NCBI RefSeq assembly: GCF_051903065.1
Contig: NZ_CP178438.1
Reading direction: 5' to 3' (one strand)
Length of the DNA stretch: 64,000 nucleotides
DNA from: Escherichia coli
GTDB lineage: Bacteria > Pseudomonadota > Gammaproteobacteria > Enterobacterales > Enterobacteriaceae
Below the pieces are notes generated by a model. It worked only from the letters and a program-made list of their open reading frames with translations, did not search any database and was not told the origin of the DNA. This document shows positions 1,722 to 48,342 of this stretch, one piece after another (positions within the stretch are counted from its first letter, which is position 1; the number at the start of each line of letters is the position of its first letter). Position numbers and translations under genes: made by a program.

Positions 1722-1747
1722 GCGCGGCATGATGTCGCGCTTTTTTT
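1722..1747 (+). terminator. narK rho-independent terminator
   Basis: GC-rich hairpin gcgcggcat..atgtcgcgc followed by T7 run, 24 bp after the narK stop. Confidence 0.6.
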
Positions 1748-1858
1748 ATACGTTATTTAGTTACAACATACTAATGTTATATAGCTTATTTCGCCGGATT
1801 TCAGGTGATGCTGCCAACTTACTGATTTAGTGTATGATGGTGTTTTTGAGGTGCTCCA

Positions 1859-2134
1859 GTGGCTTCTGTTTCTATCAGCTGTCCCTCCTGTTCAGCTACT
1901 GACGGGGTGGTGCGTAACGGCAAAAGCACCGCCGGACATCAGCGCTATCTCTGCTCTCACTGCCGTAAAACATGGCAACTGCAGTTCACTTACACCGCTT
2001 CTCAACCCGGTACGCACCAGAAAATCATTGATATGGCCATGAATGGCGTTGGATGCCGGGCAACAGCCCGCATTATGGGCGTTGGCCTCAACACGATTTT
2101 ACGTCACTTAAAAAACTCAGGCCGCAGTCGGTAA
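1859..2134 (+). CDS. insA: IS1 InsA (transposition regulator, N-terminal part of InsAB' transposase)
   Basis: 91-aa [26 protein letters not shown]... recognised as IS1 InsA; A6C slippery motif for the -1 frameshift at 2110-2116. Confidence 0.93.
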
Positions 2135-2556
2135 CCTCGCGCATACAGCCGGGCAGTGACGTCATCGTCTGCGCGGAAATGGACGAACAGTGGGGCTATG
2201 TCGGGGCTAAATCGCGCCAGCGCTGGCTGTTTTACGCGTATGACAGGCTCCGGAAGACGGTTGTTGCGCACGTATTCGGTGAACGCACTATGGCGACGCT
2301 GGGGCGTCTTATGAGCCTGCTGTCACCCTTTGACGTGGTGATATGGATGACGGATGGCTGGCCGCTGTATGAATCCCGCCTGAAGGGAAAGCTGCACGTA
2401 ATCAGCAAGCGATATACGCAGCGAATTGAGCGGCATAACCTGAATCTGAGGCAGCACCTGGCACGGCTGGGACGGAAGTCGCTGTCGTTCTCAAAATCGG
2501 TGGAGCTGCATGACAAAGTCATCGGGCATTATCTGAACATAAAACACTATCAATAA
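2053..2556 (+). CDS. insB: IS1 InsB (transposase C-terminal part)
   Basis: 167-aa ORF in the -1 frame relative to insA, overlapping its 3' end; recognised as IS1 InsB. Confidence 0.9.
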
Positions 2557-2598
2557 GTTGGAGTCATTACCGGATTTCATTAAGAGCCATTAATATGT

Positions 2599-2628
2599 TA
2601 CCCATGGGGAATACTCCTTAATACCCAT
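2599..2628 (+). promoter_or_regulatory. NarL heptamer cluster upstream of narG (about -200 region)
   Basis: TACCCAT (2599-2605), TACTCCT (2613-2619), TACCCAT (2622-2628) match the NarL TACYYMT heptamer; position roughly 180-210 bp upstream of the predicted narG start site. Confidence 0.55.
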
Positions 2629-2761
2629 TTGCATAAAAATCTTAATAGTTTAAATAGCTACAGGTATAAAACGTCTTAATTTACAGCATGTTATGCTGTA
2701 ACTGTTAATTATCCTAAAGGGGTATCTTAGGAATTTACTTTATTTTTCATCCCCATCACTC

Positions 2762-2775
2762 TTGATCGTTATCAA
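2762..2775 (+). promoter_or_regulatory. FNR box of the narG promoter
   Basis: TTGATcgttATCAA at 2762-2775, about 92 bp upstream of the narG ATG, consistent with a class II FNR site at -41.5. Confidence 0.65.
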
Positions 2776-2866
2776 TTCCCACGCTGTTTCAGAGCGTTAC
2801 CTTGCCCTTAAACATTAGCAATGTCGATTTATCAGAGGGCCGACAGGCTCCCACAGGAGAAAACCG

Positions 2867-5800
2867 ATGAGTAAATTCCTGGACCGGTTTCGCTACTTCA
2901 AACAGAAGGGTGAAACCTTTGCCGATGGGCATGGCCAGCTTCTCAATACCAACCGTGACTGGGAGGATGGATATCGCCAGCGTTGGCAGCATGACAAAAT
3001 CGTCCGCTCTACCCACGGGGTAAACTGCACCGGCTCCTGCAGCTGGAAAATCTACGTCAAAAACGGTCTGGTCACCTGGGAAACCCAGCAGACTGACTAT
3101 CCGCGTACCCGTCCGGATCTGCCAAACCATGAACCTCGCGGCTGCCCGCGCGGTGCCAGCTACTCCTGGTATCTTTACAGTGCCAACCGCCTGAAATACC
3201 CGATGATGCGCAAACGCCTGATGAAAATGTGGCGTGAAGCGAAGGCGCTGCATAGCGATCCGGTTGAGGCATGGGCTTCTATCATTGAAGACGCCGATAA
3301 AGCGAAAAGCTTTAAGCAGGCGCGTGGACGCGGTGGTTTTGTTCGTTCTTCCTGGCAGGAGGTGAACGAACTGATCGCCGCATCTAACGTTTACACCATC
3401 AAAAACTACGGCCCGGACCGTGTTGCTGGTTTCTCGCCAATTCCGGCAATGTCGATGGTTTCTTACGCATCGGGTGCACGCTATCTCTCGCTGATTGGCG
3501 GTACTTGCTTAAGCTTCTACGACTGGTACTGCGACCTGCCTCCTGCGTCTCCGCAAACCTGGGGCGAGCAAACTGACGTACCGGAATCTGCTGACTGGTA
3601 CAACTCCAGCTACATCATCGCCTGGGGTTCAAACGTGCCGCAGACGCGTACCCCGGATGCTCACTTCTTTACTGAAGTGCGTTACAAAGGGACCAAAACT
3701 GTTGCCGTCACGCCGGACTACGCTGAAATCGCCAAACTGTGCGATCTGTGGCTGGCACCGAAACAGGGCACCGATGCGGCAATGGCGCTGGCAATGGGCC
3801 ACGTAATGCTGCGTGAATTCCACCTCGATAACCCAAGCCAGTATTTCACCGACTATGTGCGTCGCTACACCGACATGCCGATGCTGGTGATGCTGGAAGA
3901 ACGCGACGGTTACTACGCTGCGGGTCGTATGCTGCGCGCTGCTGATCTGGTGGATGCGCTGGGTCAGGAAAACAATCCGGAATGGAAAACTGTCGCCTTT
4001 AATACCAATGGCGAAATGGTTGCGCCGAACGGTTCTATTGGCTTCCGCTGGGGCGAGAAGGGCAAATGGAATCTTGAGCAGCGCGACGGCAAAACTGGCG
4101 AAGAAACCGAGCTGCAACTGAGCCTGCTGGGTAGCCAGGATGAGATCGCTGAGGTGGGCTTCCCGTACTTTGGTGGCGACGGCACGGAACACTTCAACAA
4201 AGTGGAACTGGAAAACGTGCTCCTGCACAAGCTGCCGGTGAAACGCCTGCAACTGGCTGACGGCAGCACCGCTCTGGTGACCACCGTTTACGATCTGACG
4301 CTGGCAAACTACGGTCTGGAACGTGGCCTGAACGACGTTAACTGTGCAACCAGCTATGACGATGTGAAAGCTTATACCCCGGCCTGGGCCGAGCAGATTA
4401 CCGGCGTTTCTCGCAGCCAGATTATTCGCATCGCCCGTGAATTTGCCGATAACGCTGATAAAACGCACGGTCGTTCGATGATTATCGTCGGTGCGGGGCT
4501 GAACCACTGGTATCACCTCGATATGAACTATCGTGGTCTGATCAACATGCTGATTTTCTGCGGCTGTGTCGGTCAGAGCGGGGGCGGCTGGGCGCACTAT
4601 GTAGGTCAGGAAAAACTGCGTCCGCAAACCGGCTGGCAGCCGCTGGCGTTTGCCCTTGACTGGCAGCGTCCGGCGCGTCACATGAACAGCACTTCTTATT
4701 TCTATAACCACTCCAGCCAGTGGCGTTATGAAACCGTCACGGCGGAAGAGTTGTTGTCACCGATGGCGGATAAATCCCGTTATACCGGACACCTGATCGA
4801 CTTTAACGTCCGTGCGGAACGCATGGGCTGGCTGCCGTCTGCACCGCAGTTAGGCACTAACCCGCTGACTATCGCTGGCGAAGCGGAAAAAGCCGGGATG
4901 AATCCGGTGGACTATACGGTGAAATCCCTGAAAGAGGGTTCCATCCGTTTTGCGGCAGAACAACCAGAAAACGGTAAAAACCACCCGCGCAACCTGTTCA
5001 TCTGGCGTTCTAACCTGCTCGGTTCTTCCGGTAAAGGTCATGAGTTTATGCTCAAGTACCTGCTGGGGACGGAGCACGGTATCCAGGGTAAAGATCTGGG
5101 GCAGCAGGGCGGCGTGAAGCCGGAAGAAGTGGACTGGCAGGACAATGGTCTGGAAGGCAAGCTGGATCTGGTGGTTACGCTGGACTTCCGTCTGTCGAGC
5201 ACCTGTCTCTATTCCGACATCATTTTGCCGACGGCGACCTGGTACGAAAAAGACGACATGAATACATCGGATATGCATCCGTTTATTCACCCGCTGTCTG
5301 CGGCGGTCGATCCGGCCTGGGAAGCGAAAAGCGACTGGGAAATCTACAAAGCCATCGCGAAGAAATTCTCCGAAGTGTGCGTCGGCCATCTGGGTAAAGA
5401 AACCGACATCGTCACGCTGCCTATCCAGCACGACTCTGCCGCTGAACTGGCGCAGCCGCTGGATGTGAAAGATTGGAAAAAAGGCGAATGCGACCTGATC
5501 CCAGGCAAAACTGCACCGCACATTATGGTCGTAGAGCGCGATTATCCAGCGACTTACGAACGCTTTACCTCTATCGGCCCGCTGATGGAGAAAATCGGTA
5601 ATGGCGGTAAAGGGATTGCATGGAACACCCAGAGCGAGATGGATCTGCTGCGTAAGCTCAACTACACCAAAGCGGAAGGTCCGGCGAAAGGCCAGCCGAT
5701 GCTGAACACCGCAATTGATGCGGCAGAGATGATCCTGACGCTGGCACCGGAAACCAACGGTCAGGTAGCCGTGAAAGCCTGGGCTGCCCTGAGCGAGTTT

Positions 5801-6610
5801 ACCGGTCGTGACCATACGCATCTGGCGCTGAATAAAGAAGACGAGAAGATCCGCTTCCGCGATATTCAGGCACAGCCGCGCAAAATTATCTCCAGCCCGA
5901 CCTGGTCTGGTCTGGAAGATGAACACGTTTCTTACAACGCCGGTTACACCAACGTTCACGAGCTGATCCCATGGCGTACGCTCTCTGGTCGTCAGCAACT
6001 GTATCAGGATCACCAGTGGATGCGTGATTTCGGTGAAAGCCTGCTGGTTTATCGTCCGCCGATCGACACCCGTTCGGTGAAAGAAGTGATAGGCCAGAAA
6101 TCCAACGGCAACCCGGAAAAAGCGCTCAACTTCCTGACGCCGCACCAGAAGTGGGGTATCCACTCCACCTACAGCGACAACCTGCTGATGCTGACTTTAG
6201 GTCGCGGTGGTCCGGTGGTCTGGTTGAGTGAAGCCGATGCCAAAGAGCTGGGTATCGCCGATAACGACTGGATTGAAGTCTTCAACAGCAACGGCGCTCT
6301 GACTGCCCGTGCGGTTGTCAGCCAGCGTGTTCCGGCAGGGATGACCATGATGTACCACGCGCAGGAACGTATCGTTAACCTGCCTGGTTCGGAAATTACC
6401 CAACAGCGTGGTGGTATCCATAACTCGGTCACCCGTATCACGCCGAAACCGACGCATATGATCGGCGGCTATGCCCATCTGGCATACGGCTTTAACTACT
6501 ACGGCACCGTAGGTTCTAACCGCGATGAGTTTGTTGTAGTGCGTAAGATGAAGAACATTGACTGGTTAGATGGCGAAGGCAATGACCAGGTACAGGAGAG
6601 CGTAAAATGA
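2867..6610 (+). CDS. narG: Respiratory nitrate reductase A, alpha (molybdopterin) subunit
   Basis: 1247-aa ORF recognised as NarG; first gene of the narGHJI block with overlapping stop/start junctions. Confidence 0.96.
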   Translation: MSKFLDRFRYFKQKGETFADGHGQLLNTNRDWEDGYRQRWQHDKIVRSTHGVNCTGSCSWKIYVKNGLVTWETQQTDYPRTRPDLPNHEPRGCPRGASYSWYLYSANRLKYPMMRKRLMKMWREAKALHSDPVEAWASIIEDADKAKSFKQARGRGGFVRSSWQEVNELIAASNVYTIKNYGPDRVAGFSPIPAMSMVSYASGARYLSLIGGTCLSFYDWYCDLPPASPQTWGEQTDVPESADWYNSSYIIAWGSNVPQTRTPDAHFFTEVRYKGTKTVAVTPDYAEIAKLCDLWLAPKQGTDAAMALAMGHVMLREFHLDNPSQYFTDYVRRYTDMPMLVMLEERDGYYAAGRMLRAADLVDALGQENNPEWKTVAFNTNGEMVAPNGSIGFRWGEKGKWNLEQRDGKTGEETELQLSLLGSQDEIAEVGFPYFGGDGTEHFNKVELENVLLHKLPVKRLQLADGSTALVTTVYDLTLANYGLERGLNDVNCATSYDDVKAYTPAWAEQITGVSRSQIIRIAREFADNADKTHGRSMIIVGAGLNHWYHLDMNYRGLINMLIFCGCVGQSGGGWAHYVGQEKLRPQTGWQPLAFALDWQRPARHMNSTSYFYNHSSQWRYETVTAEELLSPMADKSRYTGHLIDFNVRAERMGWLPSAPQLGTNPLTIAGEAEKAGMNPVDYTVKSLKEGSIRFAAEQPENGKNHPRNLFIWRSNLLGSSGKGHEFMLKYLLGTEHGIQGKDLGQQGGVKPEEVDWQDNGLEGKLDLVVTLDFRLSSTCLYSDIILPTATWYEKDDMNTSDMHPFIHPLSAAVDPAWEAKSDWEIYKAIAKKFSEVCVGHLGKETDIVTLPIQHDSAAELAQPLDVKDWKKGECDLIPGKTAPHIMVVERDYPATYERFTSIGPLMEKIGNGGKGIAWNTQSEMDLLRKLNYTKAEGPAKGQPMLNTAIDAAEMILTLAPETNGQVAVKAWAALSEFTGRDHTHLALNKEDEKIRFRDIQAQPRKIISSPTWSGLEDEHVSYNAGYTNVHELIPWRTLSGRQQLYQDHQWMRDFGESLLVYRPPIDTRSVKEVIGQKSNGNPEKALNFLTPHQKWGIHSTYSDNLLMLTLGRGGPVVWLSEADAKELGIADNDWIEVFNSNGALTARAVVSQRVPAGMTMMYHAQERIVNLPGSEITQQRGGIHNSVTRITPKPTHMIGGYAHLAYGFNYYGTVGSNRDEFVVVRKMKNIDWLDGEGNDQVQESVK

Positions 6611-8145
6611 AAATTCGTTCACAAGTCGGCATGGTGCTGAATCTCGATAAGTGCATCGGCTGCCACACCTGTTCAGTTACCTGTAAAAACGTCTGGACCA
6701 GCCGTGAAGGCGTGGAATACGCGTGGTTCAACAACGTGGAAACCAAGCCGGGCCAGGGCTTCCCGACTGACTGGGAAAACCAGGAAAAATACAAAGGCGG
6801 CTGGATCCGTAAAATCAACGGCAAACTGCAGCCGCGCATGGGTAACCGTGCCATGCTGCTGGGTAAAATCTTCGCTAACCCGCATCTGCCGGGGATCGAC
6901 GATTATTACGAGCCGTTCGATTTTGACTATCAGAACCTGCATACCGCGCCGGAAGGCAGCAAATCGCAGCCGATTGCCCGTCCGCGTTCGCTGATTACCG
7001 GGGAACGGATGGCGAAAATCGAAAAAGGGCCGAACTGGGAAGATGACTTGGGCGGTGAGTTTGACAAACTGGCGAAAGACAAGAACTTCGACAACATCCA
7101 GAAGGCGATGTATAGCCAGTTCGAAAACACCTTCATGATGTATTTGCCGCGCCTGTGCGAACACTGCCTGAACCCGGCATGTGTGGCGACCTGCCCGAGC
7201 GGTGCGATTTACAAGCGTGAAGAAGATGGCATCGTCCTGATCGACCAGGATAAATGCCGTGGCTGGCGTATGTGCATCACCGGATGCCCGTACAAAAAAA
7301 TCTACTTCAACTGGAAGAGCGGTAAGTCTGAGAAGTGCATCTTCTGCTATCCGCGTATTGAAGCGGGTCAGCCGACCGTGTGCTCAGAAACCTGTGTCGG
7401 TCGTATCCGTTATCTTGGCGTGCTGCTGTACGATGCCGACGCGATTGAACGTGCAGCCAGCACCGAGAACGAGAAAGATCTCTACCAGCGTCAGCTGGAG
7501 GTGTTCCTCGATCCGAACGATCCGAAAGTCATCGAGCAGGCGATTAAAGACGGTATTCCGCTGAGCGTTATTGAAGCTGCACAGCAGTCGCCGGTTTATA
7601 AAATGGCAATGGAATGGAAACTGGCGCTGCCGCTGCATCCAGAATATCGCACACTGCCGATGGTCTGGTACGTGCCGCCTCTGTCTCCGATTCAGTCTGC
7701 AGCAGACGCGGGTGAGCTGGGTAGCAACGGCATTCTGCCAGACGTCGAAAGCCTGCGTATTCCGGTACAGTATCTGGCGAATCTGCTGACCGCCGGTGAT
7801 ACCAAACCGGTACTGCGCGCGCTGAAACGTATGCTGGCGATGCGTCATTACAAACGTGCTGAAACCGTTGACGGTAAAGTTGATACCCGTGCGCTGGAAG
7901 AGGTCGGTCTGACCGAAGCCCAGGCACAGGAGATGTACCGTTATCTGGCGATTGCTAACTACGAAGATCGCTTTGTGGTGCCGAGTAGTCATCGTGAACT
8001 GGCACGGGAAGCCTTCCCGGAGAAAAATGGCTGCGGCTTTACCTTTGGTGATGGCTGCCACGGTTCAGATACCAAATTCAATCTGTTCAACAGCCGCCGT
8101 ATCGATGCCATCGACGTAACCAGCAAAACGGAGCCGCACCCATGA
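6607..8145 (+). CDS. narH: Respiratory nitrate reductase A, beta (Fe-S) subunit
   Basis: 512-aa ORF with multiple Cys clusters (CIGCHTCSVTC, CEHCLNPAC...); ATGA overlap with narG stop. Confidence 0.95.
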   Translation: MKIRSQVGMVLNLDKCIGCHTCSVTCKNVWTSREGVEYAWFNNVETKPGQGFPTDWENQEKYKGGWIRKINGKLQPRMGNRAMLLGKIFANPHLPGIDDYYEPFDFDYQNLHTAPEGSKSQPIARPRSLITGERMAKIEKGPNWEDDLGGEFDKLAKDKNFDNIQKAMYSQFENTFMMYLPRLCEHCLNPACVATCPSGAIYKREEDGIVLIDQDKCRGWRMCITGCPYKKIYFNWKSGKSEKCIFCYPRIEAGQPTVCSETCVGRIRYLGVLLYDADAIERAASTENEKDLYQRQLEVFLDPNDPKVIEQAIKDGIPLSVIEAAQQSPVYKMAMEWKLALPLHPEYRTLPMVWYVPPLSPIQSAADAGELGSNGILPDVESLRIPVQYLANLLTAGDTKPVLRALKRMLAMRHYKRAETVDGKVDTRALEEVGLTEAQAQEMYRYLAIANYEDRFVVPSSHRELAREAFPEKNGCGFTFGDGCHGSDTKFNLFNSRRIDAIDVTSKTEPHP

Positions 8146-8852
8146 TCGAACTCGTGATTGTATCGCGTCTCCTTGAATATCCGGATGCTGCCTTATGGCA
8201 GCATCAACAAGAGATGTTTGAGGCGATTGCCGCGTCGAAAAATCTGCCAAAAGAGGATGCCCATGCGCTGGGCATTTTCCTGCGCGATTTAACGACGATG
8301 GATCCGCTCGATGCCCAGGCGCAGTACAGCGAACTGTTCGACCGTGGCCGCGCCACGTCACTGTTGCTGTTTGAACATGTGCACGGCGAATCCCGCGACC
8401 GCGGCCAGGCGATGGTGGACCTGCTGGCGCAGTACGAGCAGCACGGCTTGCAGTTAAACAGCCGCGAATTGCCGGACCATCTGCCGCTGTATCTGGAGTA
8501 CCTGGCGCAGCTACCGCAAAGCGAAGCCGTGGAAGGTTTGAAAGATATCGCGCCGATTCTGGCATTGCTGAGCGCGCGTCTGCAACAGCGTGAAAGCCGT
8601 TATGCCGTGCTGTTTGATCTGCTGCTGAAACTGGCGAATACCGCTATCGACAGCGACAAAGTGGCGGAAAAAATTGCCGACGAAGCGCGCGATGATACGC
8701 CGCAGGCGCTGGATGCTGTCTGGGAAGAAGAGCAGGTTAAATTCTTTGCTGACAAAGGCTGCGGTGATTCAGCAATCACTGCTCATCAGCGTCGCTTTGC
8801 CGGTGCCGTCGCGCCGCAATATCTGAATATCACCACCGGAGGACAGCACTAA
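8142..8852 (+). CDS. narJ: Nitrate reductase assembly chaperone
   Basis: 236-aa ORF recognised as NarJ; 4-nt overlap with narH. Confidence 0.93.
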
Positions 8853-16870: not shown

Positions 16871-18296
16871 TAATGCCGATCAGTTAAGGATCAGTTGACC
16901 GATCCAGTGGCTGTGTAAGAATCCGGAAACGCTCACTCGTTTCCGGATTTTTTTATGCACATTGGACAGGCTCTTGATCTGGTATCCCGTTACGATTCTC
17001 TGCGTAACCCACTGACTTCTCTGGGGGATTACCTCGACCCCGAACTCATCTCTCGTTGCCTTGCCGAATCAGGTACTGTAACGCTACGCAAGCGCCGTCT
17101 TCCCCTCGAAATGATGGTCTGGTGTATTGTTGGCATGGCGCTTGAGCGTAAAGAACCTCTTCACCAGATTGTGAATCGCCTGGACATCATGCTGCCGGGC
17201 AATCGCCCCTTCGTTGCCCCCAGTGCTGTTATTCAGGCCCGCCAGCGCCTGGGAAGTGAGGCTGTCCGCCGCGTGTTCACGAAAACAGCGCAGCTCTGGC
17301 ATAACGCCACGCCGCATCCGCACTGGTGCGGCCTGACCCTGCTGGCCATCGATGGTGTGTTCTGGCGCACACCGGATACACCAGAGAACGATGCAGCCTT
17401 CCCTCGCCAGACACATGCCGGGACCCCGGCGCTCTACCCGCAGGTCAAAATGGTCTGCCAGATGGAACTGACCAGCCATCTGCTGACGGCTGCAGCCTTC
17501 GGCACGATGAAGAACAGCGAAAATGAGCTTGCTGAGCAACTTATAGAACAAACCGGCGATAACACTCTGACGTTAATGGATAAAGGTTATTACTCACTGG
17601 GATTGTTAAATGCCTGGAGCCTGGCGGGAGAACACCGCCACTGGATGATCCCTCTCAGAAAGGGAGCTCAATATGAAGAGATCAGAAAACTGGGTAAAGG
17701 CGATCATCTGGTGAAGCTGAAAACCAGCCCGCAGGCACGAAAAAAGTGGCCGGGACTGGGAAATGAGGTGACAGCCCGCCTGCTGACCGTGACGCGCAAA
17801 GGAAAAGTCTGCCATCTGCTGACGTCGATGACGGACGCCATGCGCTTCCCCGGAGGAGAAATGGCGGATCTGTACAGTCATCGCTGGGAAATCGAACTGG
17901 GATACAGGGAGATAAAACAGACGATGCAACTGAGCAGGCTGACGCTGAGAAGTAAAAAGCCTGAGCTTGTGGAGCAAGAGCTGTGGGGTGTCTTACTGGC
18001 TTATAATCTGGTGAGATATCAGATGATTAAAATGGCGGAACATCTGAAAGGTTACTGGCCAAATCAACTGAGCTTCTCAGAATCATGCGGAATGGTGATG
18101 AGAATGCTGATGACATTGCAGGGCGCTTCACCGGGACGTATACCGGAGCTGATGCGCGATCTTGCAAGTATGGGACAACTTGTGAAATTACCGACAAGAA
18201 GGGAAAGGGCCTTCCCGAGAGTGGTAAAGGAGAGGCCCTGGAAATACCCCACAGCCCCGAAAAAGAGCCAGTCAGTTGCTTAACTGACTGGCATTA
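16871..18296 (+). mobile_element. IS4 insertion sequence, complete 1426 bp
   Basis: Imperfect 18-bp terminal inverted repeats (TAATGCCGATCAGTTAAG... / ...CTTAACTGACTGGCATTA); single intact transposase ORF; flanked by 12-bp direct repeat CCCCAGAAGGGG (16859-16870 and 18297-18308). Confidence 0.92.
16955..18283 (+). CDS. IS4 transposase (DDE), apparently intact
   Basis: 442-aa [43 protein letters not shown]... recognised as IS4-family transposase; no internal stops. Confidence 0.9.
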
Positions 18297-21489: not shown

Positions 21490-22137
21490 GTGATTCAGAC
21501 CCTTTTTGATTTTCCCGTTTACTTCAAATTTTTCATCGGGTTATTTGCGCTGGTCAACCCGGTAGGGATTATTCCCGTCTTTATCAGCATGACCAGTTAT
21601 CAGACAGCGGCAGCGCGAAACAAAACTAACCTTACAGCCAACCTGTCTGTGGCCATTATCTTGTGGATCTCGCTTTTTCTCGGCGACACGATTCTACAAC
21701 TTTTTGGTATATCAATTGATTCGTTCCGTATCGCCGGGGGTATCCTGGTGGTGACAATAGCGATGTCGATGATCAGCGGCAAGCTTGGCGAGGATAAACA
21801 GAACAAGCAAGAAAAATCAGAAACCGCGGTACGTGAAAGCATTGGTGTGGTGCCACTGGCGTTGCCGTTGATGGCGGGGCCAGGGGCGATCAGTTCTACC
21901 ATCGTCTGGGGTACGCGTTATCACAGCATTAGCTATCTGTTTGGTTTCTTTGTGGCTATTGCATTGTTCGCTTTATGTTGCTGGGGATTGTTCCGCATGG
22001 CACCGTGGCTGGTACGGGTTTTACGCCAGACCGGCATCAACGTGATTACGCGTATTATGGGGCTATTGCTGATGGCATTGGGGATTGAATTTATCGTTAC
22101 TGGTATTAAGGGGATTTTCCCCGGCCTGCTTAATTAA
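21490..22137 (+). CDS. ychE: MarC-family inner membrane protein YchE
   Basis: 215-aa hydrophobic ORF with GTG start, recognised as YchE. Confidence 0.85.
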   Translation: MIQTLFDFPVYFKFFIGLFALVNPVGIIPVFISMTSYQTAAARNKTNLTANLSVAIILWISLFLGDTILQLFGISIDSFRIAGGILVVTIAMSMISGKLGEDKQNKQEKSETAVRESIGVVPLALPLMAGPGAISSTIVWGTRYHSISYLFGFFVAIALFALCCWGLFRMAPWLVRVLRQTGINVITRIMGLLLMALGIEFIVTGIKGIFPGLLN

Positions 22138-22874
22138 TTCCTTTCAAATGAAACGGAGCTGCCATGCTCCGTTTACTTCGTCATTATTTTTACTTTGTTC
22201 CCGCGCAGTTATCAAAAGCAAAAGGAATAGGTAAAAATATTCTTCTCAAATTACAGTTAGTTATAAGGATTTCCTTAACTGCTTCTCCTCACCATCATGT
22301 TATTTTCGCCACATCATAATCCTGGGCTTGCTGAAGAATAATTGAAATGATATTAGTAATTCCACTGCCTTTGGTAGAGGAAAGTGCTAAATAATAATCA
22401 ATTGTTAAATTATTGTGCATTTCACTGCTGGAACTGTAATCAGAAAAGATAGACATGCTTAACCAATCTCTATTTGATTGAATTTAAAGATGTTTGTTAA
22501 GACATGGAAGCAAGCTATAGATTCTGATACGGTCAATAAAAGAGAATTGCTTAACAATTTTGCAAAATGTATTGGCGAGTAAGAAGCGCATTTGGTACTT
22601 TCCGGGCAACCGCCAGGCGATTCTTTATTGGTAATGAGAATAATTAACAATTAAAGAGCGTCGCGAAAGAATAATGTGTCTCGACAGGGGAGACACAGTA
22701 CGAATCGACATAAGGTGATCGTCTGAATCACCAGAATAAATAAAGTCGGTGATAGCAATCCGTAACGATAAAGTAACCTGACAGCAGAAAGTCTCCGAGC
22801 CTGTGCAGGGTCCCATTCCGGGATTACACATGCTGGTTAATACCAGTAATTATAATGAGGGAGTCCAAAAAACA

Positions 22875-34613: not shown

Positions 34614-35357
34614 TTATTGGCGAATCAACATATACAGACGGAACAGATAGATGAGCAATACGGCTGAAATCAGGTTGCTCAAGGTGTTCGCCAGTACGGC
34701 ACCAATTTCCGGGGTTAATGCGGCAAAAGAAGAGGCAAAAAGCAGCAACAGTGTTTTTGCCAGCAACCAGCTCAGTACTGCGGGTGCCACCAGACGCATA
34801 TTCGCCCAAGTCAGCCGCATACTGCTACGCATCGAGGCAAAAACGCCCATTTTGTCCTGTACCAACATCACCGGTGCCAGGGCCAGTAAAATGGCCATGA
34901 TAATTCCCGGAACGACCACCAGCATGATGCCAATCTGTACTAAAAGGGTAGTCAGAAAAATCAGAATAAATAACTTTGGCAATATCGGCGCACTGGCACC
35001 AATAGCTCGCAGCGCACTGACTCTCTGACCCGCAGACACCAGCTGGATAATTAATATTACGCCTCCGGCGAGAATGGCGTTACCGATTAATCCTGAAAAA
35101 GTGGACGCCGCTGAAGCCTGCAGCAAAATTTGTTGCTGTTCCGGTGACATATTCTGAACCAGGTCGAACAACCCACTACTGCCGCTAACGGGCACGCCGT
35201 CATTGAGCTGCGCAAGCTGTGCATCACTGGGTGAGAAAACATGCCCTAACACCACTGTGATAAACGCACATAGCAACGATACCAACAGAATGGTCATAAA
35301 TTGATTACGGAAGAAATTTCCGGTGTCACGGTATACGGACTGCGCCGTGATAGACAT
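34614..35357 (-). CDS. yciC: UPF0259 inner membrane protein YciC
   Basis: 247-aa hydrophobic ORF recognised as YciC. Confidence 0.88.
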
Positions 35358-35551
35358 GCACTCTCCTTGAGTTTTATGCAGGTGTTAATTAGCGGGCAAT
35401 TGTACCCTGGTTAAGCCTCGGGTGGCAGCATCAGGTCTTGTATGGAAAAGCATATCTTTGTAAAGCGGAGGTAATTGCTGGCCTTCAGGCGTGGGCAAAC
35501 CGCGGCAAGTGGCGATCGAGTTAATATTTGCGTAGCGAAAATATTTAAAAA

Positions 35552-37549: not shown

Positions 37550-37729
37550 TCAGGATTTACCTGATTTATTACCACCGTTTTGTTGACCGCCTTTTTTACC
37601 CGCTTCAGATGCGCGTTGCGGATCATTTTTAAAATTACCGCCGCTATGCTGACCGCCTTTACGGCCTGCGTCGGATGCCTTCTCACGGTCTTCGGCGAAA
37701 TTTCCTGAACCACCACGATGTTCGGCCAT
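37550..37729 (-). CDS. yciG: KGG-repeat general stress protein YciG
   Basis: 59 aa from the ATG at 37729 (MAEHRGGSGNFAEDREKASDAGRKGGQHSGGNFKNDPQRASEAGKKGGQ...). Confidence 0.8.
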   Translation of the reverse strand: MAEHRGGSGNFAEDREKASDAGRKGGQHSGGNFKNDPQRASEAGKKGGQQNGGNKSGKS

Positions 37730-38074
37730 GTTATTTCTCCCGTTGCGTTGCATTGTTTCATTAATATGAGTGTTGTGTGTCGGCACTCATTAAAATTAGT
37801 CGCTAATGAGAATTAGTCAAATTAAGCGTAACGAGAAGAAAGTGGGAAAATATATTATGAGGAACGTTCTTGATATATTAACAATTGCCTGAGGAATAAG
37901 TGACTTAGAGAAAATTATTGATTTTACTGGTGTTATGTTGCGGGATTAATTTGTTTGATTATATTACTGTTGGGCGGAAAAATGACGTAAGTTGACGTTT
38001 GACAGGGGTAAGCGAAACGGTAAAAAGATAAATATTAAATGAATTTAGGATTTTTCCGGCTTCGTTAAAGAAAG

Positions 38075-45795: not shown

Positions 45796-46412
45796 GCCAG
45801 TTTTTTTATATTCATCCTGATAACCCACAGCAACGTCTGATCAACCAGGCGGTGGAGATCGTGCGTAAAGGCGGGGTGATTGTTTATCCAACTGATTCCG
45901 GCTATGCGCTCGGCTGTAAAATTGAAGATAAAAACGCCATGGAGCGTATTTGTCGTATTCGCCAGCTGCCGGACGGTCACAACTTTACCCTGATGTGTCG
46001 CGATCTTTCTGAACTCTCGACCTATTCATTTGTCGATAACGTTGCGTTTCGTTTAATGAAAAATAACACGCCGGGCAACTATACCTTCATCCTGAAGGGG
46101 ACGAAGGAAGTGCCACGCCGTCTGTTGCAGGAAAAACGCAAAACCATCGGTATGCGTGTGCCTTCTAACCCGATTGCGCAGGCGTTGCTTGAAGCACTGG
46201 GCGAACCGATGCTTTCCACTTCGCTAATGCTGCCAGGCAGCGAATTTACCGAATCCGATCCCGAAGAAATTAAAGACCGTCTGGAAAAACAGGTAGATTT
46301 GATTATTCACGGCGGCTATCTCGGGCAGAAACCGACAACGGTTATTGATCTTACCGATGATACGCCGGTCGTGGTGCGTGAAGGCGTAGGTGATGTGAAG
46401 CCTTTCTTATAA
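45792..46412 (+). CDS. yciO: YrdC/Sua5-family dsRNA-binding protein YciO
   Basis: 206 aa from the ATG at 45792 (MSQFFYIHPDNPQQRL...); ATGA overlap with the yciV stop. Confidence 0.88.
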   Translation: MSQFFYIHPDNPQQRLINQAVEIVRKGGVIVYPTDSGYALGCKIEDKNAMERICRIRQLPDGHNFTLMCRDLSELSTYSFVDNVAFRLMKNNTPGNYTFILKGTKEVPRRLLQEKRKTIGMRVPSNPIAQALLEALGEPMLSTSLMLPGSEFTESDPEEIKDRLEKQVDLIIHGGYLGQKPTTVIDLTDDTPVVVREGVGDVKPFL

Positions 46413-46439
46413 CAAATTGCGTTCCACGGATGGAAGACT

Positions 46440-48342
46440 ATGGCAGGGAAGTTTCGCTGCATTTTGCTGTTGATAGCAGGGCTGTTTGTATCATCTCTAA
46501 GTTATGCAGATAACACGGAGATCCCTTCTTATGAAGAAGGGATCTCGCTCTTTGATGTTGAAGCCACTCTGCAACCGGATGGGGTGCTCGACATCAAAGA
46601 GAACATTCATTTTCAGGCGCGAAATCAGCAGATTAAGCACGGATTTTATCGTGATTTACCACGACTATGGATGCAGCCTGATGGTGACGCGGCGCTGCTG
46701 AACTATCGCATTATTAGCGTCACCCGTGATGGTATTCCTGAACCCTGGCATCATGACTGGCATATCGGGTTAATGAGTATTGTCGTGGGCGATAAACAAC
46801 GTTTCTTGCCTCAAGGCGACTATCATTATCAAATTCATTATCAGGTTAAAAATGCTTTCCAGCGTGAGGGAGATTCAGATCTGTTAATCTGGAACGTGAC
46901 TGGTAACCACTGGCCGTTTGAAATCTATAAGACCCGATTTCCACTCAAGTTCCCTGATATCGCGGGTAATCCATTTAGCGAAATCGATCTCTTTACTGGA
47001 GAAGAGGGCGACACATATCGAAATGGCCGCATCCTTGAGGACGGAAGAATTGAATCCAGCGATCCGTTTTATCGTGAAGATTTCACGGTACTCTATACTC
47101 TACCGTTGGCCTCACTCGTTACTTAGCAATGCCCCGGCTCCGCAAACGACGAATATTTTCAGCCATCTTCTTTTACCCTCCACGTCATCGTTGTTAATTT
47201 GGTTTCCGTGTCTGTTCCTGGTTTGTGGATGGTTATATCTCTGGAAGCGCAGGCCGCAATTTACGCCGGTAGATGTGATTGAAACCGATGTCATTCCGCC
47301 AGATTACACGCCCGGCATGTTACGTCTCGATGCGAAGCTGGTTTACGACGATAAAGGTTTTTGTGCCGATATCGTAAATCTGATTGTGAAAGGAAAAATT
47401 CATCTGGAAGATCAGTCTGACAAGAACCAGCAAATCCTGATTCGTGTTAATGAAGGCGCGACCAGAAATAATGAGGTATTACTGCCCGCAGAGCAGTTAT
47501 TACTGGAAGCGTTATTTCGTAAAGGCGATAAGGTCGTTCTTACGGGGAGACGCAACAGAGTCTTACGCAGGGCATTTTTACGGATGCAGAAATTTTATCT
47601 GCCGCGTAAAAAGTCTTCGTTTTACCGGCCTGATACTTTTTTGCAATGGGGTGGACTGGCAATATTGGCGGTCATTCTTTACGGTAACCTGAGTCCTGTA
47701 GGCTGGGCAGGAATGAGTCTGGTGGGCGATATGTTTATTATGATCTGCTGGCTTCTTCCTTTTTTATTTTGTTCCCTTGAGCTTTTGTTTGCCCGCGATG
47801 ATGACAAGCCTTGCGTTAATCGTGTAATCATCACTTTGTTTTTACCGCTGATTTGTTCAGGCGTGGCCTTTTATTCTCTCTATATCAATGTCGGAGATGT
47901 ATTCTTTTACTGGTATATGCCAGCGGGTTATTTTAGCGCTGTTTTCCTGACCGGTTATCTCACTGGTATGGGGTATATTTTTCTGCCAAAGTTTACCCAA
48001 ACTGGGCAGCAACGTTATGCCCACGGTGAAGCTATCGTTAACTATCTTGCGCGTAAAGAGGCGGCAACACACAGTGGGCGGCGGCGGAAAGGGGAAACAC
48101 GGAAACTGGATTACGCGTTGCTAGGTTGGGCAGTCTCAGCAAACCTTGGAAGAGAATGGGTAGCACGTATCACCCCATCACTCACAGCGGCTGTTAGCGC
48201 CCCGGAAATTGCCCGTAGTGGCGTTTTGTTCTCATTACAGATGCACCTGAGTCTGGGGGCCAATACCAGTTTGTTGGGGCGAAGTTATTCCGGTGGTGGT
48301 GCTGGCGGCGGCGCGGGTGGCGGAGGCGGTGGTGGCTGGTAA
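46440..48342 (+). pseudogene. yciQ: DUF2207-type membrane protein YciQ, interrupted by an apparent +/-1 frameshift
   Basis: N-terminal 228 codons in frame 0 end at TAG 47124-47126; the remainder (to the Gly-rich C-terminus ...GGGAGGGAGGGGGGGW) continues in the +1 frame, which is open from 46900; the two frames overlap at 46900-47126. Confidence 0.6.

Follow-up and report, generated by a model that had tools for sequence, protein, structure and literature searches.

IS1 elements of the IS1A/IS1E consensus type, as present in K-12, are 768 bp long, carry 23-bp ends, insA, an A6C motif and a 232-aa InsAB' frame, and give rise to target duplications of 8 or 9 bp. According to PMC12428005, the A6C motif acts as the -1 frameshift site in IS1, a weak promoter partly overlaps the left terminal inverted repeat (IRL), target duplications measure 8 or 9 bp, and appreciable transposition is achieved only by the consensus-type copies IS1A and IS1E. 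The same work shows that IS1 transposition is stimulated by read-through from upstream, and describes assays on the activation of the silent bgl operon. For narG, the 'full-length narG promoter' has been delimited as the nitrate-inducible fragment from -223 to +70 (PMC9314961), and NarL-P footprints were mapped at -89 and -195 on a fragment starting at -236 (PMC4549865). Here we analysed a 64-kb stretch of E. coli DNA (the window), in which a copy of IS1 resembles the K-12 elements in each of the features named first and differs from them in location alone: it lies between narK and narG. Annotation and alignment confirm that K-12 has no IS in this place, in line with the initial annotation.

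Anatomy of the element and its target duplication

The element spans positions 1804-2571 of the window on the plus strand, is exactly 768 bp long and belongs to the IS1A type (Table 1). Its ends are imperfect 23-bp repeats starting with GGT, which form an inverted repeat pair; a search of the whole 64-kb window with an IS1-end pattern returned these two as its sole matches, with none expected from shuffled sequences. The insA product matches the NCBIfam zinc-binding domain NF050000, and the InsAB' fusion can be translated across A6C without an internal stop up to the stop codon at 2556. When compared with the NCBIfam equivalog NF033558 ('IS1 family transposase'), the fusion reaches 245 bits (cut-off 100) over the entire profile (positions 1-199 of 199), and RefSeq labels the same span, as a join, 'IS1-like element IS1A family transposase, programmed frameshift'. 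A single nucleotide distinguishes the element from the IS1A copy of K-12 DH5alpha. Its length of ~768 bp, the GGT-starting ends, insA/insB' with A6C, the profile score and a duplication in the 8/9-bp range are all those of the IS1 family. That is, length, repeats, open frame and NF033558 score agree with the initial annotation of a complete IS1 with both ends, insA, insB and A6C, and the span of 1795-2580 given there comprises the IS, both duplications and one additional base per side. The putative promoter within IRL falls where the known weak IS1 promoter is placed (PMC12428005). The near-consensus sequence, together with the new IS1 copy that carries the same transposase in a sister isolate (see below), suggests that the copy is probably still mobile.

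The element is flanked by direct repeats of GGATTTCA. In the empty sites of K-12 HMS174 and CEC08123, alignment revealed a single copy (CGCCGGATTTCATTAAG) in the context TTTCGCCGGATTTCATTAAGAGCC and flanks that are collinear with those of the window. As the empty sites hold one copy only, the repeat represents duplicated target sequence, which in combination with the collinear flanks identifies a simple insertion rather than a rearrangement junction, precisely as had been proposed. The order of genes is likewise kept, i.e. narX, narK, IS1, narGHJI. Identity between the two flanks reaches 10 nt (CCGGATTTCA at 1794-1803 and 2570-2579), for no other reason than that the IS ends in CC and that CC precedes the target. 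The initial annotation had left a choice between 8 and 9 bp for the repeat. The longer reading (CGGATTTCA) requires a 767-bp IS without its terminal C, and the other intact copies examined end with ...CATTACC; it was dropped in favour of an 8-bp duplication, the plainer reading.

We consider it very probable that this structure arose by simple transposition of an IS1A-type element in the ancestor of a single clone, most likely with near-neutral consequences for nitrate respiration. In this scenario, the ancestor of the clone would have acquired an intact IS1A-type IS1 in the AT-rich spacer between the separate transcription units narK and narGHJI. InsAB', synthesized via -1 ribosomal frameshifting at A6C, would have joined the IS ends to target cuts staggered by 8 bp, and repair of the gaps would have duplicated these 8 bp. 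Since the landing site spares the narK terminator and the narG control sites, the insertion has most likely been inherited since then as a near-neutral marker.

Table 1. Features of the narK-narG region of the window and further IS1 insertions in the same spacer. Negative positions refer to narG +1.
Feature	Position	Strand or orientation	Details
narK intrinsic terminator (intact)	1722-1747	+	8-bp G+C-rich stem, 3-nt loop, T7 run; terminator scan
Target-site duplication, left copy	1796-1803		GGATTTCA; direct repeat
IRL, left terminal inverted repeat	1804-1826	+	GGTGATGCTGCCAACTTACTGAT; pattern search, 0 mismatches
Promoter-like site within IRL (putative)	1811-1838	+	CTGCCA-16-TATGAT; consensus scan
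insA	1859-2134	+	91 aa, GTG start; repressor with zinc-finger and helix-turn-helix; ORF list, translation
insAB' transframe transposase gene	1859-2556	+	-1 shift at A6C; 232 aa
A6C (AAAAAAC) -1 frameshift site	2110-2116	+	sequence match
IRR, right terminal inverted repeat	2549-2571	minus	GGTAATGACTCCAACTTATTGAT; pattern search, 0 mismatches
Target-site duplication, right copy	2572-2579		GGATTTCA; -238..-231
narG promoter fragment -223..+70 (intact)	2587-2879	+	primers narGup223 (2587) and narGDown (2879), PMC9314961 supplement
NarL heptamers	2599-2605, 2612-2618, 2622-2628		-211 to -182
FNR box, perfect	2762-2775		TTGATCGTTATCAA; centred at -41.5 given +1 at 2810
narG ATG	2867	+	within fragment 2587-2879
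LR-24 insertion	-222..-215	forward	duplication CATTAATA
EC2641 insertion	-238..-230	reverse	duplication GGATTTCAT; same target as window, overlaps GGATTTCA
MEC2025-PR insertion	-228..-220	reverse	duplication AAGAGCCAT
P276M insertion	-270..-262	reverse	duplication CAACATACT

Position relative to the control sites of narK and narG

The narK stop codon ends at 1698 and is followed by an intact intrinsic terminator, whose RNA is predicted to fold with -13 kcal/mol (z = -2.4). IS1 is oriented as narK, and its left end lies 56 bp beyond the T-run of this terminator. On the other side, the positions of the two primers delimiting the -223 to +70 fragment place narG +1 at 2810. The NarL heptamers agree with the -195 footprint region of PMC4549865. 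Relative to the same +1, the right end of IS1 is located at -239 and thus misses the -223 fragment by 16 bp and the -236 footprint fragment by 3 bp. The perfect FNR box is centred at what we take to be the established position of the narG FNR site, and both the NarL and the FNR sites of narG are untouched by IS1. Thus, IS1 is placed as the initial annotation had stated, with the narK terminator on one side and, on the other, the narG control region with its NarL heptamers from 2599 onwards.

Since the insertion point follows the narK terminator and precedes all mapped narG control sites, nitrate respiration is most likely affected marginally, if at all, and the expression of narK and narG would be essentially unchanged. 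In accordance with a consensus scan, the junction between IRR and the flank carries no promoter-like site on either strand; the sole match between 1600 and 2900 is the inward-directed site in IRL. Prentki et al. are said to have described, in 1986, hybrid promoters formed with IS1 ends. A hybrid or outward promoter at IRR was considered and rejected, as no -10 element lies at an appropriate distance from IRR; the arrangement typical of IS-mediated promoter activation, in which a -35 element in the IS end is spaced to a -10 element in the flank, is absent. Activation of bgl by IS1 or IS5 resembles the present case in that IS1 is placed upstream of a regulated operon. However, narG is not silent, the appropriately spaced -10 element is missing, and the recurrent insertions described below are of mixed orientation. 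The scan of the junction yielded no evidence of narG activation by IS1. Among RNA elements in the spacer, the best Rfam match was L20_leader, a sub-threshold chance match that reaches 25 bits where the gathering score is 58.7. Judged by titles and abstracts, no literature on an IS1 insertion at narK-narG was found; in PMC11148124, narG merely figures among the mutations of a strain, unrelated to IS1.

The nar region also varies in other respects. At 2681-2701 (-129..-109 of narG), the window and CEC08123 carry a perfect 9-bp hairpin (TTACAGCATGTTATGCTGTAA), where K-12 and LR-24 read TTACAGTCTGTTATGTGGTGG; this allele is unrelated to IS1, and the narG IHF site, which we assume to lie at ~-125, would fall around this hairpin. 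Directly after the narK stop codon, K-12, LR-24, MEC2025-PR and many others possess an extra element of ~123 bp (~500-625 in K-12 HMS174, 5873-5995 in LR-24; window equivalent 1699-1710), which is absent from the window clone and CEC08123. This element (TTCACCCCAGTCACTTACTTTAGTAAGCTCCTGGGATTCA) presumably resembles an ERIC/IRU repeat. Many matches to the empty site come in two pieces across 748 bp as compared to the 625-bp query.

Elsewhere in the window, the annotation places a seemingly intact IS4 transposase gene between tdk and adhE (CDS at 16954-18282), a location for which we assume a degenerate IS4-like remnant in K-12. In the clone, the annotation marks yciQ (window 46394-48296) as a pseudogene with a frameshift and lists, at 35339-35428 between yciC and ompW, a 90-bp fragment of the YkgJ family.

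Distribution of the insertion and clonal background of its carriers

We inspected 5,426 complete E. coli genomes. The reconstructed empty site is matched over at least 80% of its length by 5,415 of these, while the filled site is present in three: ECNB21-M121 (meat, Zhejiang, China), 23CRST027 (human faeces, Santo Domingo, Ecuador) and 23CRST031. These counts bear out that the insertion is strain-specific. Across 24 kb, the three carriers share 100% identity with the window, whereas the next genome reaches 98.8%, indicating that they represent one clone. Over the entire 64 kb, the window and 23CRST027 are separated by two substitutions and one T-run indel (a T7 versus a T6 run directly upstream of the IS4 transposase ATG at 16954).

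Chromosomes of this clone contain 28-37 places matching IS1, as compared to a median of 11 per genome. Moreover, ECNB21-M121 carries an extra IS1 between yciG and trpA that is absent from the window and adds ~776 bp (7946-8643 of its locus, corresponding to window ~37,700-38,000). Its transposase (WP_103215986.1) is identical to that of the window copy, and its presence indicates that IS1 has moved since the isolates diverged. Searching JGI metagenome contigs for junctions with an IS1 end 5-35 bp from the NarL box returned none.

Recurrent IS1 insertions in the narK-narG spacer

To cover both possibilities, the filled-site searches employed one query per IS1 orientation. They uncovered, in four other genomes, four further insertions of IS1 in the same ~60-bp spacer and in both orientations (Table 1). 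Thus, while the insertion itself is specific to its strain, the spacer is not a site unique to this lineage. No two of the five elements have the same sequence: they differ from one another at 4-17 positions, and the other four differ from the window copy at 4-11 positions, which shows that the insertion events are independent. Two are in forward and three in reverse orientation, and each is limited to one clone comprising 1-3 of the 5,426 genomes. The insertions in LR-24, EC2641, MEC2025-PR and P276M have in common with that of the window that they occupy the same spacer and leave narK and the narG promoter intact; they differ from it in target, IS1 sequence and host background, and three of them have the opposite orientation. 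LR-24 and 23CRST027 are both human faecal isolates from Santo Domingo, Ecuador, and differ in insertion site, IS1 variant (7 differences) and chromosomal background; the shared origin of these two events is probably a coincidence of sampling.

All five events fall within ~56 bp (-270 to -215 of narG), in the ~62-bp spacer (GC 0.29) that extends from the narK terminator to narG -223. By contrast, the 281 bp of narG promoter and leader (GC 0.37) received none of the five, an outcome with a probability of ~2e-4 under uniform targeting. Within +/-50 bp of the target in the window, GC content is 0.32 as compared to 0.50 for the window as a whole. The clustering is most simply explained by the AT preference of IS1 in conjunction with purifying selection against insertions into promoter and terminator. 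The tight packing of the events would then reflect that little free DNA is left between functional elements at narK-narG.

As a control, the same test was applied to two further intergenic regions of the window that are rich in AT. The ychE-oppA region (window 22137-22873, 737 bp, GC 0.37), which is 20 kb away, is empty in the window and its clone. Among the 5,426 genomes, however, it harbours six independent IS1 insertions, at +287, +292, +344, +394, +565 and +607 from the ychE stop, all with 9-bp duplications. The carriers are the K-12 DH5alpha/DH10B laboratory lineage, TW01221, TUM1857, 21220, J2 and Ecol_448; one event, ~130 bp upstream of oppA, is common to 55 strains of the K-12 DH5alpha/DH10B/JM83 type. 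Like narK-narG, this region is AT-rich intergenic DNA of the same chromosomal neighbourhood with multiple independent IS1 insertions. Unlike there, these are spread over ~320 bp of 737 bp rather than ~56 bp. In adhE-ychT (392 bp, GC 0.36), no insertion was detected among the matches examined, which instead fell in neighbouring ychE-oppA; the match counts (57 versus 58 in forward orientation) suggest the same for the remaining ones. The six ychE-oppA events demonstrate that multiple independent IS1 insertions in AT-rich intergenic DNA are commonplace in the collection. The designation of narK-narG as an 'exceptional hot spot' was rejected on the basis of this control.

Of the competing explanations, the one that survives best holds that the spacer is a hot spot specific in sequence or structure, e.g. 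an IHF-bound or bent target, rather than simply the sole permissive AT-rich DNA. Reportedly, an IS1 hot spot of this kind, with an IHF-bound or bent target, was found in pBR322 by Gamas et al. in 1987. Five events in ~56 bp, two of them on the same target, a spacer GC content of 0.29, and the finding that no insertion larger than ~812 bp, a size covering most other E. coli IS types, splits the empty site in 5,415 genomes would all be compatible with such specificity. However, the target has no match to the IHF consensus; the sole match with one mismatch in the empty-site locus is elsewhere and at chance level. Furthermore, ychE-oppA also received four IS1 insertions within 107 bp, so that the density at narK-narG is not exceptional, and the Poisson estimates rest on assumed numbers of independent IS1 events in the collection and are not reliable. 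On balance, we regard a specific hot spot as unlikely, albeit as the most serious competitor of AT preference combined with purifying selection.

Considerably less probable is an adaptive origin, in which IS1 close to the NarL -195 region of narG alters nitrate reductase expression and recurrence reflects positive selection. Conceivable routes would be read-out transcription, an IHF-binding IS1 end that introduces a new bend, or the shielding of narG from the sequence upstream of it. This idea draws on the five independent IS1 variants between -270 and -215, one of which hit the same target in opposite orientation, on the lack of insertions across the promoter and leader, 281 bp that are similarly rich in AT (~2e-4 under uniform targeting, as above), and on the presence of the window clone on two continents. 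Yet, the six independent insertions at ychE-oppA show that recurrence is not unusual, and purifying selection by itself would lead to the observed sparing of the terminator and the -223..+70 promoter. With two forward and three reverse insertions, the orientation is mixed, which speaks against any mechanism based on a directional promoter or on read-through; the junction has no predicted hybrid promoter, and each event has remained confined to one clone with 1-3 of 5,426 genomes. Similarly improbable is that read-through of the terminator of narK, a gene strongly induced by nitrate and anaerobiosis, raises insAB' transcription and thereby couples IS1 transposition to nitrate respiration, or that the IS end beside the NarL -195 region subtly retunes narG induction. 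If true, narK read-through might help to explain the expansion of IS1 in this lineage.

Finally, an assembly artefact or rearrangement junction, i.e. an IS1 collapsed or misplaced by the assembler, is a negligible prospect: misassembly classically originates at IS copies, but no support for this reading was found, and the identical filled site occurs in three independent complete assemblies, which settles the possibility of an artefact raised by the initial annotation, with an exact target duplication, collinear flanks and an intact gene order from narX to narGHJI.

Taken together, simple transposition into permissive AT-rich DNA remains the preferred explanation, and we infer from the position of the element relative to the mapped sites that the insertion is neutral or nearly so. 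The element is an ordinary, strain-specific textbook IS1, the annotation of which is already present in three public genomes. Apart from strain typing, it is of little consequence and does not challenge what is known about IS1 or nar regulation. For typing, the filled narK-narG site provides a clean clonal marker of a rare, IS1-rich E. coli lineage. Beyond that, the five insertions outline, at base-pair resolution, a stretch from the narK terminator to narG -223 that tolerates disruption, in agreement with the experimentally determined limits of the narG promoter.
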